From a virus (Duplodnaviria; Caudoviricetes), in the IMG/VR virus record IMGVR_UViG_3300044507_000063, positions 1 through 38,040 of that record: DNA of 38,040 nucleotides. The stretch is one strand, 5' to 3'. Each line of letters opens with the position of its first letter. Within the stretch, counting starts at the first letter, position 1. The notes beneath the pieces were generated by a model. That model searched no databases, was not told where the DNA came from, and was given only the letters and a program-made list of their open reading frames with translations. A program made the position numbers and the translations under genes. This document shows, piece by piece, positions 13,054 through 19,228 of this stretch.

Positions 13054-13431
13054 ATGAACGACTTCATAAAAGGCAAAGGTTCGGTAGGTATAGCAATATC
13101 CTACTATTCATTAAGAGGGATGGTTAGCATCCCACTAGAACCTTGTGATTACAATCTTATATTTGACGATGGCACAAAACTTCATACAGTAAAAGTAATT
13201 TCTTGTTCCTATAAGACAAAATATGGAGTTTACTCAGCTTCAATAAAAACATCCGGCGGTAATCAGCCTACTACTCAATCAAAAATATTTAATCCGAAAT
13301 CATGTTCTACTGTATTTATTGTTACTGCTGAAATGCATCTTTACGAGATACCTTCTAATGTAATTCAATCCACTAGACAAATTTCTTTATGTAAATATCA
13401 CGAATATAATGTTTCTATTATTCCGAGTTAG
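13054..13431 (+). CDS. group I intron-associated-type PD-(D/E)XK endonuclease, free-standing
   Basis: KG..G..I...G..VSIP....DYNLIFD.G.KL..V.V pattern of the I-Ssp6803I-like family; catalytic motif looks altered. Confidence 0.65.
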   Translation: MNDFIKGKGSVGIAISYYSLRGMVSIPLEPCDYNLIFDDGTKLHTVKVISCSYKTKYGVYSASIKTSGGNQPTTQSKIFNPKSCSTVFIVTAEMHLYEIPSNVIQSTRQISLCKYHEYNVSIIPS

Positions 13432-13493
13432 CTCAGCGGTAGAGCAGTGCGCTGTTAACGCATTGGCCGTAGGTTCGAATCCTACACTCGGAG
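13422..13493 (+). tRNA. tRNA-Asn(GTT)
   Basis: Acceptor TCCGAGT/ACTCGGA, D arm GCTC/GAGC, anticodon stem GTGCG/CGCAT with GTT at 13454-13456, T arm GTAGG-TTCGAAT-CCTAC; CCA not encoded. Confidence 0.95.
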
Positions 13494-13498
13494 TCCTT

Positions 13499-13519
13499 CA
13501 TGTAAAGCGGCTTTACATG
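13499..13519. terminator. hairpin between the convergent tRNA and late operon; contains the 15-bp palindrome
   Basis: CATGTAAAG-CGG-CTTTACATG followed by caatttt. Confidence 0.45.
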
Positions 13520-14158: not shown

Positions 14159-15301
14159 CTATGAGAACGTTTGCGTACTTGTGATTGCACGCCACCACCA
14201 GAGATCAACGGTAGTCCCGATAATGCCCCCTGTAGTAGTTGTATCATCACCAGTTCCCGCACCAATTAGGATACCACGCGAACCAATGTTCTGCTTAGCA
14301 AAACTAAGCACGTTCTGGTTAGCATATGGCAATGGAGCCGGTGTAATCCCGAAGCCTTGGAAATTATTAATATTCCCTTCGCCTTGCGGTACCATCACAG
14401 GGAAAGTGAATGGATAACCAGAAGCAAGCGGCCAGTGTGTCGGGTTGCTTGCTGATCCGGAACTAGTAGCAAATACACCAAAACTTGTGCTATCCACTGC
14501 CAATGTGACAGTCTGAGTACCAACAGCATTATTAGCAGCAATAACAGTCGCCTGGAAAGGAAGACCGCTAATTGAGTTAGTAAGCTGAGGCACACCAAAA
14601 ATGGATGGCATATCAAAGGTTACAACATCACCAACATAATAGTTTTGTTGAACCAATGTAGTGACAACCATTGGATTAGCATTAGTAATTTTGGCAATTA
14701 CTCTATTTTCTGGGTATACACCTATTTCATCTGCTACATAGGCATTGCCTACTTTTTGGACAAAACCGACTGATGTTGTAGCACCAGTGCTGTCTAGCAA
14801 TGTAGTAAATGTCGTACCACCACCACCAACAGCTGTTACAGTCATACGCAGCCCCCCAAATTGAGGTGCGCTTGTAAGACCATAAACACGTACATTATCC
14901 CCTACTTGCAATGTATGTCCGCCTGTCGTCCAAACTGTGGTTGTACCAGGAGAAAACGAAGTAATCGCAACTGCAGGATATGTAATAGGTGTGTAACTAT
15001 TATAAATGGTAAAACCATTCTGAGGCAGGTAACCAATGGCCAAAGCAGCAACGTTCGCTTGTGTTGCTGAATAAGCCGCAATCGTCTCTTCAACAATCGC
15101 TGTCCCTTGTGTCAAAGCATTGTTGTAATACGCTTTAACAATCCTTGGAACTGTTGTAATGCCTGAAACACCTTGCGCTGTCACGTCCATTGCACTCAAA
15201 TTAAACAATTCAAAACTGTTAATCTGCTGTTGCAATGGCAAGAAATAAGGAGTGGAAGCTACGTTCTTAAACGTGCCAGTAGTAACAAATGATAAACTCA
15301 T
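14159..15301 (-). CDS. capsid-associated/decoration protein with two E1-FCCH-like modules
   Basis: Directly follows the capsid gene; AAGGGGG RBS; H.L.VGD.V and ITNANPMVVTT...VGDVV repeats. Confidence 0.65.
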   Translation of the reverse strand: MSLSFVTTGTFKNVASTPYFLPLQQQINSFELFNLSAMDVTAQGVSGITTVPRIVKAYYNNALTQGTAIVEETIAAYSATQANVAALAIGYLPQNGFTIYNSYTPITYPAVAITSFSPGTTTVWTTGGHTLQVGDNVRVYGLTSAPQFGGLRMTVTAVGGGGTTFTTLLDSTGATTSVGFVQKVGNAYVADEIGVYPENRVIAKITNANPMVVTTLVQQNYYVGDVVTFDMPSIFGVPQLTNSISGLPFQATVIAANNAVGTQTVTLAVDSTSFGVFATSSGSASNPTHWPLASGYPFTFPVMVPQGEGNINNFQGFGITPAPLPYANQNVLSFAKQNIGSRGILIGAGTGDDTTTTGGIIGTTVDLWWWRAITSTQTFS

Positions 15302-15311
15302 GACTACCCCC

Positions 15312-15728
15312 TTATAATGCCACTTGGAGAGTGCAACGCAAGTTGACAATCCAAGATGTGTTAGTAATGTTAAACACCTGCGCCATCTTCCAACCAGCTG
15401 TTTGATACAATCTCAAGCGTGGCGATGCAATCTCTGGTGGTGCATAGATAAATTGAGCGGAATAACCGTCCAAATCAACCATGTCATATGATTCTTGACC
15501 AGGCAAGAATACGTTATATACATCTGCACCTTTTTCAGAAGCATTAGGCGTTACCGATCCAACTGAAGACAGAAGGAAACGAACGTTTCTTACTGTACCC
15601 CATTCGGATTGAAGCAGGTTAGACTGATTAGCGTAGTTAGCTACGTTAATAAATCCGACCATTTGGTCTAGATCTGCCGACAGATTCGTGTGGCCAAGGC
15701 CAAAGAATGCTGTACGAACTGGAGCTGT
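15312..15728 (-). CDS. major capsid protein exon 4 (138 aa)
   Basis: TAPVRTAFF...EWGTVRNVRF...DVY...GWK; joins exon 3 to give EGELKFG|TAPV. Confidence 0.9.
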   Translation of the reverse strand, partial: TAPVRTAFFGLGHTNLSADLDQMVGFINVANYANQSNLLQSEWGTVRNVRFLLSSVGSVTPNASEKGADVYNVFLPGQESYDMVDLDGYSAQFIYAPPEIASPRLRLYQTAGWKMAQVFNITNTSWIVNLRCTLQVAL

Positions 15729-16344
15729 CAATTCTGTTACTTTTTATTGACCTATTTGATACAACTATCCATTGCTATCTAAGCAAAGTTGCTCACTCCC
15801 ACCAGACCGGTACTTGTTGTGGGGCAGCTCTTCACTTTTCGCCTGATGAGTCATCTGACGAAACTCCTCGGAGTCGCGAAGCGCTACCAAGAAGAGTAGG
15901 TTGTAGCAGTGGCCGGTCATTTTTCAAATAGGCGGAGGGTCTTGTTATTCCCCTCTCACTGCCTTTATTTATTCGCAGTGTTCGGACTATCGCATCCTTG
16001 ATGCAGTGATGACCATCTTTCTAACCCACAAATTTCACAAGGTGGATTAATTAAAATTCCTTCACTATCATACAAGGCTTCGGGACTTAGTCTCTCAGGC
16101 TGTGAATTAATTAAATCATATTCTTTTATAGATCTACTTTCATACATTGTGGCTAAACTTTTCCATTTTATTGCATATTGGACATTTAATGTTATTCCAA
16201 TATCATTTCCGTGATCTCCGTTTTCACCACTACTTTCGTTCAATAAATATGCTTTTTTCATCACTTGCCCCTTGTTAACCTCCCACTTTACGCAGCGAGG
16301 CACTCCAAGTCAATCACCCAAAGTTTTAATTCGGCACACACTTT
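15729..16344 (-). mobile_element. group I intron 3 (616 nt)
   Basis: P1 AATTCGGT/GCCGAATT with U.G at the splice site; P7 GAGACTA (about 16088-16094) and GATAGTCC (about 15984-15991); terminal G after GTAACAGAATT. Confidence 0.92.
15828..15896 (+). ncRNA. type I hammerhead ribozyme, antisense to intron 3
   Basis: CTGATGA 15843-15849; stem II GTC-atct-GAC; GAAA 15860-15863; stem III ACTC-ctcg-GAGT; GTC cleavage triplet ending at 15875; stem I TTTCGC/GCGAAG extended by CTCTTC/GAAGAG. Confidence 0.88.
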
Positions 16345-16455
16345 ACCGAATTTCAATTCACCTTCGATCAAGTCCATAATGAACTGAGCGTTAGCCGTTC
16401 TCAATAACCGTACCGCTTTCGAGCAATCCAATGGGCTGATGTTTGTTGGGTTGTC
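16345..16455 (-). CDS. major capsid protein exon 3 (37 aa)
   Basis: DNPTNISPLDCSKAVRLLRTANAQFIMDLIEGELKFG; bounded by an omega-G and a P1. Confidence 0.88.
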
Positions 16456-16473
16456 CCACCCATCTATTACTTG

Positions 16474-16502
16474 TTGACTTAAACATTTTCAGTAGGTATA
16501 CT
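16474..16502 (+). promoter_or_regulatory. promoter of the antisense LAGLIDADG gene
   Basis: TTGACT-17-TATACT; ATG at 16509 is 7 nt downstream, with no RBS. Confidence 0.7.
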
Positions 16503-16508
16503 ATGCCT

Positions 16509-17390
16509 ATGAAAAACACATTATCATATTTAGCAGGATATATTGACGGGGATGGTTGTTTCTTCCTTAAAAAGGAGACAAATCCTCTCAAATATCGAGC
16601 GTATATTGTTATTTCCTCTACTAATGAAGAGGTTCTTAAAACCTTTGAACTTTCTTTTGGGGGAAGCATATACGCTTGCACTCCTAGAAAAGAACACTGG
16701 AAAAGATCTTATCATTGGAATTGTAGAGGAAAATTTGCTTTGGAAATAACTAATGCAATGCTTGAATTTCTCACAGAAAAGAAGAGCGATGCTCTTATCT
16801 TCATAGATTATATTAAAACTTCTTGCAAAAACCACAAACAGGAATTGATTCAAAAAATGAAAAATAATAGAGATAAAATTAGAGAAATTAATGAATCTGT
16901 TGTTGAACAGATTAAACAAACAAAAACAATTGGAGTTTCTAACGAATTGGATTATCCTTATCTTGCTGGTTTTATTGACGCTGAATGCTGTCTGGGAGTC
17001 TCTAAATACAAGCCTAAAAACAAACCCAATTTTACATACAAAATCATCCTTCAATGTCAAAACACTAATCCTATCATTTTCTTTTGGCTTATGGAGAGAT
17101 TCGGAGGAAGTATTTCGCATGTCAAACGCAATATTAAAAATCCTAATCATCGAGATCAAATAATCTGGAATATTAGTGCTGCTAAATTGGCTGACATACT
17201 TCCTAAGATCTTGCCTTTTTTGAGATCTAAAAAATCCGTTTGTGAAAAGCTTATTGAACTTCATAACACTAATATTCCAATAGGAATAAGCAGAAAAACA
17301 CAAGAATTCAGAGATTCTTATGCTCTTGTACTTATCCAGAGGGATAAAATTGTTGATGATATTCATAAACTCAATTCCAAAGGTGTATAA
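16509..17390 (+). CDS. double-motif LAGLIDADG homing endonuclease (293 aa)
   Basis: YLAGYIDGDG and YLAGFIDAEC motifs, each followed by FGG.I and W...L.FL..KK. Confidence 0.92.
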   Translation: MKNTLSYLAGYIDGDGCFFLKKETNPLKYRAYIVISSTNEEVLKTFELSFGGSIYACTPRKEHWKRSYHWNCRGKFALEITNAMLEFLTEKKSDALIFIDYIKTSCKNHKQELIQKMKNNRDKIREINESVVEQIKQTKTIGVSNELDYPYLAGFIDAECCLGVSKYKPKNKPNFTYKIILQCQNTNPIIFFWLMERFGGSISHVKRNIKNPNHRDQIIWNISAAKLADILPKILPFLRSKKSVCEKLIELHNTNIPIGISRKTQEFRDSYALVLIQRDKIVDDIHKLNSKGV

Positions 17391-17596
17391 TGTTTAAGCG
17401 GGTAGTCATTTCTGCTACCTCTCCATATTACTATGGAGGCTGGACTATCGCATATGCTATTTACATAGCATCCTCAGGGTTTAGTCTCTCAGGCTGCGCA
17501 TTACCGCTTGCCCCTTATTGTCCTTTGCTGTATACTTTACGCAGCAAGTGGGAGTTTTAAGTCAATTACCCAAGGTTTTAAAACGGCAACAATTCT

Positions 17597-17923
17597 ACCG
17601 TTTGTACCACTTGTACAATTAATTGGTGGGGCACCTCCTTCCATCATTGACCTGGCTAGCTGATCCTCAGTCTCTCTTAATGACTGACCCAAAACGGATA
17701 CAGCCGAATTTAAAACCGGGTCTTCGTTAATCAACATTACCTGTTCCTGAAGTATGATATAGGTGCCATACCAATCGATCCTGGCGTCTATGTCAAGTGC
17801 GGTAAGTTGCTGCGCTGGAGGATCTACGATACCGTTACCTAATGGTACAGGTGCAGTTTGCAAGTTTTGATATCTACGACGACGTAGAATATCGCCAGCT
17901 TGCTGATCCATCGTAATGGGATA
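17597..17923 (-). CDS. major capsid protein exon 2 (109 aa)
   Basis: YPITMDQQAGDILRRRRYQNL...YGTYIIL.EQV...EDPVLN...CTSGTNG, an N4-gp56-like capsid pattern. Confidence 0.9.
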
Positions 17924-18086
17924 CATTCTGTTACTTTATGACCTAATGTTACATCGCATTACATTGCTCACATATAGGCGACCACCTCATTTCTGGGTGG
18001 TTCCCTGATTTTATTTATTGTCAGGGGTCGGACTATCACATATCATATTGTTATTATCATCAATATGATCCTCTGGGTTTAGTCTC

Positions 18087-18245
18087 TTACGGTGTGTTTT
18101 TGGTTTTTATTAAATCAATAAACATTTCATAAAGTTTATCTGTTCTTGCAGTTTGCTGTCTCATGTCTGCTATAATATCCCTATGTATGAAATATGCAGA
18201 TCCTAAAACAGTAAATATGATCGATAAAGTTTGTATCCATTCCAT
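18087..18245 (-). CDS. intron-encoded small membrane protein (52 aa)
   Basis: MEWIQTLSIIFTVLGSAYFIHRDIIADMRQQTARTDKLYEMFIDLIKTKNTP; GGAGG RBS; stop codon abuts P7. Confidence 0.85.
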   Translation of the reverse strand: MEWIQTLSIIFTVLGSAYFIHRDIIADMRQQTARTDKLYEMFIDLIKTKNTP

Positions 18246-18267
18246 AAATCCTCCATTTTTTCGGAAG

Positions 18268-18296
18268 ATTATATCATGTTTATCGTTTATTTTCAA
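18268..18296 (-). promoter_or_regulatory. intron-internal sigma70-type promoter
   Basis: TTGAAA-17-TATAAT with extended -10 TG. Confidence 0.8.
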
Positions 18297-18365
18297 ACAC
18301 TTCCGCCATGTCACCCTGTCGGGCTTCCATGTCAATTACCAAAGGTTTTAAATGGGCTATCGTTA

Positions 18366-18473
18366 ACCCATTGTAGTATGGATCAAGTCTGGCATAGGAC
18401 GTGCAAGCAACTTCATCGAAAGCTGTTGTTGTACAGCTGGAGGAAGAATGCTTGTGGTTGTTGGACCTGACAT
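18366..18473 (-). CDS. major capsid protein exon 1 (36 aa); spliced product 320 aa
   Basis: MSGPTTTSILPPAVQQQLSMKLLARPMPDLIHTTMG; GGAG RBS; follows the scaffold gene. Confidence 0.88.
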
Positions 18474-18508
18474 TATTTATCTCCATGATTTTATCATAGA
18501 GACGAAGA

Positions 18509-19228
18509 TTACTTACGAGCTGCTGCCAAAGTTTCTTTCCAAAGGGCATTACGCTGATCTTTGGACATCGTTGAATTGGACATTTTTGCCGCTGTTGTAA
18601 CTGCTTCGGAACGGACTCCTAGGCTTCCTAACTTGGGCTTTCCTTCCTTTTCATCGACTCTTTGCTGTTCCTGAGAAACAGGCTGTTTTTTTGCGGTATT
18701 TTGTGCCTTATCGGCTTGATAACGCGCATCTTTTTTAATAAGATTATAGACCTTTCTCAAAGGATTGGCAGCTTTTTCGACAGCTTCTCGGTTGTCTTCG
18801 TCACTTTTGATATATTTTTCAATATTCTCAGCCGTGACGACCTCTTTGAAGTCAGGAAATTCCGTGGCAGTTTCCAAAATTGCAAGCTTTTGATCTTTTT
18901 CGATTAGTTTTTGCTCATAAGCAGATAGTTTTTTATTTACCTGATTAAAAGCTTTAACAAGTTTCTTTCCGTCGGGAAATTCTTCTTGTTCTAATTGTCT
19001 GAAATCAAAATCTTCTTCGGGTTGTGCTTGAGGGCGTTGCATTTGCTGTTGCATTTGCATTTGCTTCTCGTACATTTCCCTTTCTTTTTGGGCTTGCCAT
19101 AGCTGACGTTCGAGGTCTTCTTTGGCTTTTCGAAGTTCTGCAAAACTTTCTTGCGGAGACTTCTTTTCATGGTTTTCAGCTGCCTGGTTGACCACTTCAG
19201 GTGCTTGGGTCTGTTCAGTTGAGTCCAT
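18509..19228 (-). CDS. putative capsid scaffolding protein
   Basis: Acidic, Gln-rich coiled coil immediately upstream of the capsid gene; AAAGGA RBS before ATG at 19228. Confidence 0.75.
   Translation of the reverse strand: MDSTEQTQAPEVVNQAAENHEKKSPQESFAELRKAKEDLERQLWQAQKEREMYEKQMQMQQQMQRPQAQPEEDFDFRQLEQEEFPDGKKLVKAFNQVNKKLSAYEQKLIEKDQKLAILETATEFPDFKEVVTAENIEKYIKSDEDNREAVEKAANPLRKVYNLIKKDARYQADKAQNTAKKQPVSQEQQRVDEKEGKPKLGSLGVRSEAVTTAAKMSNSTMSKDQRNALWKETLAAARK

Follow-up and report, generated by a model that had tools for sequence, protein, structure and literature searches.

P1 guide pairing is a hallmark of group I introns, which can circularise after excision and some of which, the twin-ribozyme introns, combine a splicing ribozyme and an endonuclease gene with GIR1, a group I-derived branching (lariat-capping) ribozyme that caps the endonuclease gene next to it. 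The intergenic hammerhead (HH) ribozymes of phages PaP3 and Bcep176 lie between genes on the coding strand, as described by Perreault et al. 2011 (PMC3088659). Hammerheads and group I introns are each well known; an antisense HH inside a group I intron, common to two phage lineages as in the case presented here, is not described in the literature searched. Neither full-text searches nor passages of Perreault et al. 2011 (PMC3088659) gave a description of an HH nested backwards in a group I intron, in agreement with the preliminary description of this locus, which knew of no phage example of such an arrangement.

The DNA studied here, called the window throughout, is a complete virus record of 38,040 bases with terminal repeats whose long open reading frames (ORFs) are nearly all on the minus strand. 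A tblastn comparison with intact 320-aa capsid proteins revealed an N4-gp56-type capsid gene that is split into four exons by three paralogous inserts of 442, 1141 and 616 nt:

18366..18473, minus strand: capsid exon 1, aa 1-36 (tblastn)
17924..18365, minus strand: intron 1, 442 nt, group I type, without a P9.2 insert (exon map; intron comparison)
17597..17923, minus strand: capsid exon 2, aa 37-145 (tblastn)
16456..17596, minus strand: intron 2, 1141 nt, group I type, with an antisense LAGLIDADG gene at the P9.2 position (exon map; intron comparison)
16503..17390, plus strand: LAGLIDADG homing endonuclease gene (ATG at 16503, ORF listed from TTG at 16443; Pfam PF00961, E = 4.7e-12)
16345..16455, minus strand: capsid exon 3, aa 146-182 (tblastn)
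15729..16344, minus strand: intron 3, 616 nt, group I type (exon map; intron-less joints; P1; terminal G)
15745..15933, minus strand: variable P9.2 domain of intron 3, which holds the HH module, with closing helix 15751-15758 / 15925-15932 (replaced by a hairpin in relatives; intron 1 without insert)
15315..15728, minus strand: capsid exon 4, aa 183-320 (tblastn, 87% identity to P0001/P0005)

Among GenBank phages, megablast of positions 15300-18600 gave no match, and tblastn of exon 4 detected 5 distant capsids only.

We assign the introns to the group I class because of their P1 pairings, their terminal G, exact intron-less alleles and core motifs recognised by eye. The exons flanking intron 3 abut at aa 182/183 of the intact 320-aa homologues, and intron-less alleles in contigs of runs X2, X4 and X5 have 15727 joined to 16344 with exactly 616 nt skipped. 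In P1 of intron 3, the exon sequence AAUUCGGU pairs with the guide GCCGAAUU with a U.G at the splice site; the exon-final U is paired with a G of the internal guide in introns 1, 2 and 3 alike, and all three end in GUAACAG-N-G with the terminal G before the 3' exon. By eye, each of them also carries GAGACUA...GAUAGUCC (putative P7) with a hairpin between (putative P8) and a candidate P3 partner, with no group I match from Rfam at E <= 10. Across 29 distinct introns of at most 450 nt from 79 related capsid loci, guide and exon change together at seven sites (after aa 36, 79, 98-101, 105, 133, 145/146 and 182) when the printed intron ends are compared by eye. Given a complete phage genome with the split capsid gene as its only copy, we infer that the introns are probably self-splicing. 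A 112-aa minus-strand ORF at 15965-16303 was considered as an endonuclease gene and rejected, as it has no Pfam match and runs through the ribozyme core.

Beyond P7', intron 3 contains two hairpins, followed by CGCCUAUUUG, which pairs with CAAAUAGG near the 3' end and thereby encloses ca. 180 nt. The strands matching this pair are almost adjacent in intron 1 and enclose the antisense LAGLIDADG gene in intron 2, and relatives in runs X3 and X5 carry a hairpin of 27-28 nt in place of 15745-15933 (15745-15926 for X5). Since these relatives have a mere hairpin there and intron 1 has no insert, the module sits in a variable peripheral domain that is P9.2 by position. It had previously been placed in the 3' P9-region peripheral loop of minus-strand intron 3, and both the intron comparison and the relatives agree; the proposal that the same site holds the antisense homing endonuclease gene of intron 2 is confirmed by the comparison of the paralogous introns, and the distance to this gene, put at about 630 nt, is 628 nt from the predicted cut to the ATG at 16503. 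Contigs of runs X2 to X5, which do not include 15751-15914, yielded no further variants of the module.

Direct reading of the plus-strand letters at 15828-15896 gives a complete type I HH in the order CUCUUC, a short internal loop, UUUCGC, CUGAUGA, GUC-AUCU-GAC, GAAA, CUC-CUCG-GAG, C17, GCGAAG, CGCUACCAA and GAAGAG, with every core element at the place where the preliminary description had seen it. The topology is type I with an open stem I and closed stems II and III, both in the sequence and in the structure used for a covariance model of the family (R1, see below). This HH forms the core of a larger module of ca. 118 nt (15803-15921, plus strand) with the following parts:

15803..15921, plus strand: whole HH module with outer clamp, long stem I, core and stems II and III (R1 match of 138.6 bits, model positions 1-118; homologous modules in contigs L110, L131 and L144)
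15805..15810, plus strand: outer clamp, 5' arm, GACCGG (pairs with 15913-15918; an A-U pair is G-C in L144, pair 8/123)
15828..15833, plus strand: distal stem I, 5' arm, CUCUUC (compensatory changes at 3/6 pairs among four sequences and 6/6 pairs among nine)
15837..15842, plus strand: proximal stem I, 5' arm, UUUCGC (U15837.G15881 wobble)
15843..15849, plus strand: HH core C3-A9, CUGAUGA (invariant in 9/9 family members)
15850..15859, plus strand: stem II, GUC 15850-52 / GAC 15857-59, loop AUCU (G10.1-C11.1 present)
15860..15863, plus strand: core G12 A13 A14 and A15.1, GAAA (sequence reading; family alignment)
15863..15874, plus strand: stem III, ACUC 15863-66 / GAGU 15871-74, loop CUCG (A15.1-U16.1 is A15863-U15874; a U-A pair is G-C in L131 and L144)
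15875..15876, plus strand: C17 and the predicted cleavage site 15875/15876 (position from the HH consensus; H17 is C or A across the family)
15876..15881, plus strand: proximal stem I, 3' arm, GCGAAG (pairs with UUUCGC 15837-42, one U.G pair included)
15891..15896, plus strand: distal stem I, 3' arm, GAAGAG (pairs with CUCUUC 15828-33)
15913..15918, plus strand: outer clamp, 3' arm, CCGGUC (a U-run at 15920-15924 comes next)

The cleavage triplet N-U-H reads GUC in the window (15873-15875), and its H is C in five and A in four family members. The stem I internal loop of 9 nt (CGCUACCAA) is conserved, and loop II is variable (AUCU in the window, GCCU in L110, GAAA in L131 and L144). By nearest-neighbour energy, the HH pairs are not part of the minimum-energy fold of the plus strand, with the best HH-containing fold lying 3.3 kcal/mol higher; the corresponding gap is 1.2-2.1 kcal/mol for L121, L131 and L144. 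Judged by its sequence, the motif of the window is very probably a real member of the HH family, and a plus-strand transcript would likely undergo the predicted self-cleavage after C15875.

The HH motif is not a chance occurrence. A descriptor composed of CUGAUGA, GAAA, U-H and three stems with minimum lengths of 4 pairs (stem I), 3 pairs (stem II) and 4 pairs (stem III, A15.1-U16.1 among them) matches exactly once on both strands of the window, the single hammerhead in its 38,040 bases, and at least once in 14 of 2000 dinucleotide shuffles. A looser gapped pattern has one forward and no reverse match in the window, but its backwards control matches 9 times, so the loose HH core alone carries little meaning. 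No hammerhead model of Rfam reaches its gathering score on the window, where only a tRNA passes, and the only HH-type match at E <= 10 is a weak one to RAGATH-1-hammerhead (21.4 bits vs. a gathering score of 56.3, E = 5.1). We give this miss little weight because the Rfam models also miss control hammerheads: across eight HH-bearing loci, two of them plain intergenic, the gathering score is reached in 0/8 and any HH match at E <= 1 is obtained in 2/8. The search with hammerhead models that had been suggested as a check on the motif therefore has little power in this case. On the relatives of the window, Rfam gave no usable hammerhead or group I match, be it at the gathering score or at E <= 10.

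Homologues of the module were found by several routes. A scan for the core with the stem II of the window returned L110, which carries a homologue of the whole module. Another scan, run on the metagenome contigs, used two anchors outside the HH and left the core unspecified; its 10 stretches comprised L133 and L138 (both with exactly the module sequence of L110), the new variant L131 and 7 chance matches. L144 was obtained by a pattern that fixed part of the HH core. Two further pattern scans gave only the L110 contig, another returned 18 stretches among which only the L144 contig matches R1, and the single match of a scan of genome contigs was a chance one inside a bacterial coding gene. We also located 25 ordinary intergenic phage hammerheads, which are unrelated to the module and served as context and controls.

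The four distinct close members differ only in loops II and III, in the stem I internal loop and at paired positions that change together. Their alignment has 97% of 100 cells paired (34-51% in slid controls) and 5/25 compensated pairs, and its covariation score is reached by 0/500 shuffles. The covariance model R1, built from these four sequences, also matches more distant hammerheads, namely L121 (68.8 bits, full length), L111 (41.5), L125 (34.5), L129 (30.8) and L126 (25.3). In the resulting nine-row alignment, which was fitted to R1 and whose five distant members came from a pattern fixing the core and stem II, 98% of 204 cells are paired, 15/25 pairs are compensated and the covariation score is again reached by 0/500 shuffles. 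Poor conservation of core nucleotides in homologues had been named as evidence that would speak against the HH, and the core is invariant in all nine members. The A15.1-U16.1 pair is A-U in 9/9, and G10.1-C11.1 is G-C in 7/9 including the window and A.A in L131 and L144. The U.G wobble of stem I (U15837.G15881 in the window) is kept in 7/8 sequences with letters there and fits the HH strand only, because the opposite strand would read A.C. Most members have a GC stem and then a U-run at the end of the module. At their thresholds, the Rfam models miss this long-stem-I HH family of ca. 118 nt, which includes a natural A10.1.A11.1 variant.

The ordinary place of this family, a point absent from the preliminary description, is on the coding strand between genes. 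The modules of L144, L121 and L125 share the strand of the ORFs on either side of them, and the downstream ORF begins 15 nt, 21 nt and 25 nt after the module, respectively; that of L144 separates the portal block from three small genes, and AGAGGA and ATG come after it. The setting is ambiguous for L131, L111, L129 and L126, with L131 ending 43 bases upstream of the module. Cutting mRNA just ahead of a gene appears to be the family's ordinary job. Within the family, only the window and the L110 lineage (L110/L133/L138) have a module that is both antisense to all neighbouring genes and nested in an intron.

The module of L110 lies antisense in a homologous intron at the same site (aa 182/183), next to a capsid exon 4 with 36.8% identity to P0005. 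The introns of the window and L110 share 81.2% identity over 266 nt and 83.7% over 92 nt, and their modules 85.6% over 139 nt; since 81.2% is an overall figure, the 3' part of the L110 intron must be below it outside the module. Among the window, L110 and L131, 0/13 core columns vary, compared with 9/48 stem columns and 18/54 other unpaired columns (27/102 together, with one helix mis-registered by a column). The unchanged core of the two intron copies is by itself weak evidence, because 13 unchanged bases at ca. 14% divergence are expected about once in 8 cases. Both intron copies keep G10.1-C11.1, though the close relatives outside introns, L131 and L144, have A.A. A search of homologous introns for the insert, proposed earlier, thus found it in the L110 lineage (85.6% module identity) and in 0/79 related capsid loci: neither the HH motif nor a blastn match to the module occurs in any of these loci (449,465 bases, both strands), many of which carry introns at eight or more insertion sites, site 182 among them, and site-182 introns without the module exist. 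A blastn search of GenBank phages with the module also gave no match. A tRNA scan of five related loci was empty, so the module is not linked to tRNAs in these five.

Plus-strand promoter-like sites are as frequent as in shuffles (18 vs. 18.4 +/- 4.1, no excess), and the sequencing runs listed for this stretch include no RNA run. A promoter-like TTGACT-17-TATACT at 16474-16502 lies ahead of the LAGLIDADG gene, and no ORF directly follows the module on the plus strand of the window. Downstream of the module in the L110 lineage (L130), the plus strand has no ORF of at least 75 aa except one of 78 aa, and no LAGLIDADG gene. The option that the HH processes a transcript running toward the LAGLIDADG gene, raised in the preliminary description, is therefore not conserved, as the L110 lineage has the module and no comparable downstream gene. 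Nothing supports its other option of a viroid- or retrozyme-like element: each genome has one copy, and both a repeat unit and a further ribozyme of like polarity are missing. A MITE-like repeat was considered and set aside as the module is single-copy in each genome.

We favour, at about even confidence, the explanation that the antisense module in P9.2 is an ectopic copy of a mobile intergenic phage HH that is carried as a tolerated passenger. Recombination between phages infecting the same cell would have brought the module into the intron loop, where it would have survived in antisense orientation only: with the HH in sense, the capsid pre-mRNA would be severed between the 3' splice site and the ribozyme core and its exons could not be ligated, so that only antisense insertions would be tolerated in this essential gene. 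The complement of the module would be an equally compact three-way junction that a peripheral loop could tolerate, and the plus-strand RNA, if it is transcribed at all, would fold and cleave itself after C15875. Both the capture by recombination and the counter-selection against sense copies are argued here, not observed. The passenger explanation is supported by the absence of the module from all 79 related capsid loci, the site-182 introns without it, the lack of a plus-strand ORF after it, promoter-like sites at chance level and its single copy. Against it stands a module identity between the window and L110 (85.6%) that is at least as high as in the rest of the intron's 3' part, and this conservation together with the unvarying core could reflect selection on the HH in its intron setting. 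It is also odd that the intron copies keep G10.1-C11.1 if they are idle, because L131 and L144 outside introns have A.A.

Alternatively, as the preliminary description had also considered, the HH may act in vivo on antisense (plus-strand) transcripts through the capsid gene by cutting them after C15875, which we regard as possible, though clearly less probable than a passenger. The GC clamp and the U-run at 15913-15924 might also stop such transcripts and leave less duplex with the capsid pre-mRNA, and in this phage a transcript extending to the LAGLIDADG gene would receive a 5'-OH end from the cut. This fits the intact and canonical core of both intron-borne copies, a module that is conserved no less than the intron core, the plus-strand gene 628 nt downstream in the window, the apparent role of the family in cutting mRNA just before a gene and the GC stem and U-run at the end of most members. 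It fits poorly with upstream promoter-like sites that show no excess, with a LAGLIDADG gene that has its own promoter-like site (16474-16502), with an L110 lineage that keeps the module without a downstream plus-strand gene of at least 75 aa (bar the one 78-aa ORF) and with the absence of the HH from all 79 related capsid loci, many of which have antisense-prone introns. In the fullest version, which we hold to be rather unlikely, both ribozymes of opposite polarity would work: the intron would splice the capsid message and the HH would cut, and perhaps stop, antisense transcripts that enter the capsid gene, which would keep the late message single-stranded like an RNA fuse and in this phage would free the homing-endonuclease transcript.

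The position of family members 15-25 nt ahead of a start codon and the antisense LAGLIDADG gene in the same loop of the paralogous intron 2 could alternatively mean that the module is the remnant of an antisense cassette of HH, ribosome-binding site and homing endonuclease gene in the P9.2 loop whose gene was later lost, and its 3' flank CAUUUUUCAAAUAGG is similar to the sequence ahead of the ribosome-binding site in L144 and L121. We consider this doubtful, as the loss of the gene would need to have been exact because the intron's own P9.2 closing strand, which is also present in intron 1, directly follows the module; moreover, intron 2 has no hammerhead before its gene, and none is found beside any gene in the 79 capsid loci. 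It is very unlikely, finally, that selection acts on the minus (intron) strand as a folded P9.2 extension with the opposite-strand HH core as a leftover or coincidence. The minus strand of 15800-15925 does fold better than shuffles (z = -2.19, 5/200 as good) and the plus strand does not (z = -0.77, 44/200 as good), compensatory changes are compatible with either strand, and the minimum-energy fold of the plus strand differs from the HH fold by the gap of 3.3 kcal/mol. Yet L144 and, more distantly, L121 and L125 have this module outside introns, on the coding strand and with the HH in sense, the junction bases are an invariant HH core in 9/9 members, the conserved U.G pair suits the HH strand only and relatives manage with a hairpin of 27-28 nt at this place.

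If the module is a passenger, phages pass small ribozyme modules to one another as units, the peripheral loops of introns are landing pads for such modules just as they are for endonuclease genes, and the orientation of such insertions is filtered by what the host transcript tolerates. Activity on antisense RNA, in turn, would represent a new phage means of policing antisense transcription in late genes.

Among known systems, the module family shares a canonical core, short stems II and III and a home in tailed-phage genomes with the intergenic phage and prophage hammerheads of Perreault et al. 2011 (PMC3088659), and L144, L121 and L125 have the intergenic, coding-strand setting that the same study describes for PaP3 and Bcep176. 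The module of the window is unlike these hammerheads in its place inside a group I intron, in being antisense to all genes next to it, and in having a long stem I (two helices and an outer clamp, ca. 118 nt) with scores below the Rfam thresholds. The RAGATH-1 hammerhead (RF03152), its best Rfam match, has CUGAUGAG, a very short stem II and CGAAACUCC...GGAGUC in common with the window, but the 5' hairpin of RF03152 is absent there and 21.4 vs. 56.3 bits make it no member by the Rfam criterion. The twin-ribozyme group I introns of myxomycetes and Naegleria resemble intron 3 in having a second small ribozyme in a peripheral loop and in belonging to an intron family with homing endonuclease genes. 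Their GIR1, in contrast, shares the strand of the intron and immediately precedes the endonuclease gene, and we rejected a twin-ribozyme intron for the window because its second ribozyme is an HH on the opposite strand with no ORF or gene after it and the LAGLIDADG gene is in intron 2. With viroid-like RNAs and retrozymes, the window shares an HH associated with an RNA able to circularise, but it has a single HH of the wrong polarity for intron RNA and no repeat unit, with no RNA replicase known for such a setting. Capsid-gene group I introns with an antisense homing endonuclease gene, such as intron 2 of the window, are like intron 3 in carrying an opposite-strand functional unit in a peripheral loop and differ from it in their cargo, which in intron 3 is a ribozyme module and not a protein gene.

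The N4-gp56-type capsid gene is an intron hotspot in this group of phages. Across the capsid gene of the window (15315-18473) and 79 related capsid loci (L027-L105), clean insertion sites were found after amino acids 36, 79, 87, 98-101, 105, 110-112, 118, 133, 145/146 and 182, with the position after amino acid 36 occupied in 25 loci and the one after amino acid 133 in nine. Some of these loci carry up to four introns and many carry none. Two of the capsid introns in the window contain small open reading frames, neither of which found a match in a Pfam search:

16261-15965, minus strand: 98-aa ORF of intron 3, running from the P6 loop to the P9 loop
18335-18087, minus strand: 82-aa ORF of intron 1, in the P6 region

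The ORF of intron 3 has its AUG in the P6 loop, 7 nt downstream of AAGGGG, and its frame crosses P7/P3'/P8 (encoding ...ERLSPE...) before reaching a stop codon in the P9 loop. A 70-aa ORF in the homologous capsid intron of another phage lineage (L110) starts and stops at matching places and is otherwise unrelated in sequence. The ORF of intron 1 contains a hydrophobic stretch (MEWIQTLSIIFTVLGSAYFIH...).

The antisense LAGLIDADG gene of intron 2 is preceded by a promoter-like site that lies antisense to the 3' end of the intron:

16474-16502, plus strand: promoter-like TTGACT-17-TATACT, 10 of 12 positions matching

Because this site ends one base short of the ATG at 16503, any RNA initiated from it would either lack a leader or begin at the second AUG. 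Elsewhere, 13054-13519 forms a plus-strand unit within the minus-strand genome. Its 125-aa ORF, which matches PD-(D/E)XK only weakly (E = 0.0054, below the cut-off), overlaps by 10 nt with a tRNA, and a hairpin completes the unit:

13422-13493, plus strand: tRNA with anticodon GUU, 72.9 bits
13499-13519, plus strand: terminator-like hairpin 3' of the tRNA

Two close relatives of the hammerhead module replace the almost universal G10.1-C11.1 pair with A.A, and one of them, in an ordinary sense setting, is directly followed by small genes:

L131 2499-2618, minus strand: module with A.A at 10.1/11.1, stem II AUC-GAAA-GAA
L144 2461-2578, minus strand: module with A.A at 10.1/11.1, stem II AUC-GAAA-GAA
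L144 2446-1816, minus strand: a row of three small genes of 70, 62 and 78 aa

These modules may represent a naturally occurring variant, altered next to the core, that has kept its activity. All three small genes share the ending NECDH, and their stop and start signals overlap within a repeated junction, AATGAGTGTGA(T/C)CATTGA. A different, well-conserved hammerhead, UGCA-CUGAUGA-GUCUUGGGAC-GAAAC-ACAUUUAUUUGU-GUC-UGCA, is common to twelve short viral contigs of 1-10 kb (L107, L109, L115, L117-L120, L122-L124, L127 and L128).

Directly 3' of the module's GC-rich outer clamp lies a U-run (CAUUUUU, CAAUUUUU and similar), at 15913-15924 on the plus strand of the window for the clamp's 3' arm and the run together and at the equivalent place in L110, L131, L144 and the further module relatives L121 and L129. 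Read on the hammerhead strand, this arrangement resembles an intrinsic terminator whose structured loop is very large.
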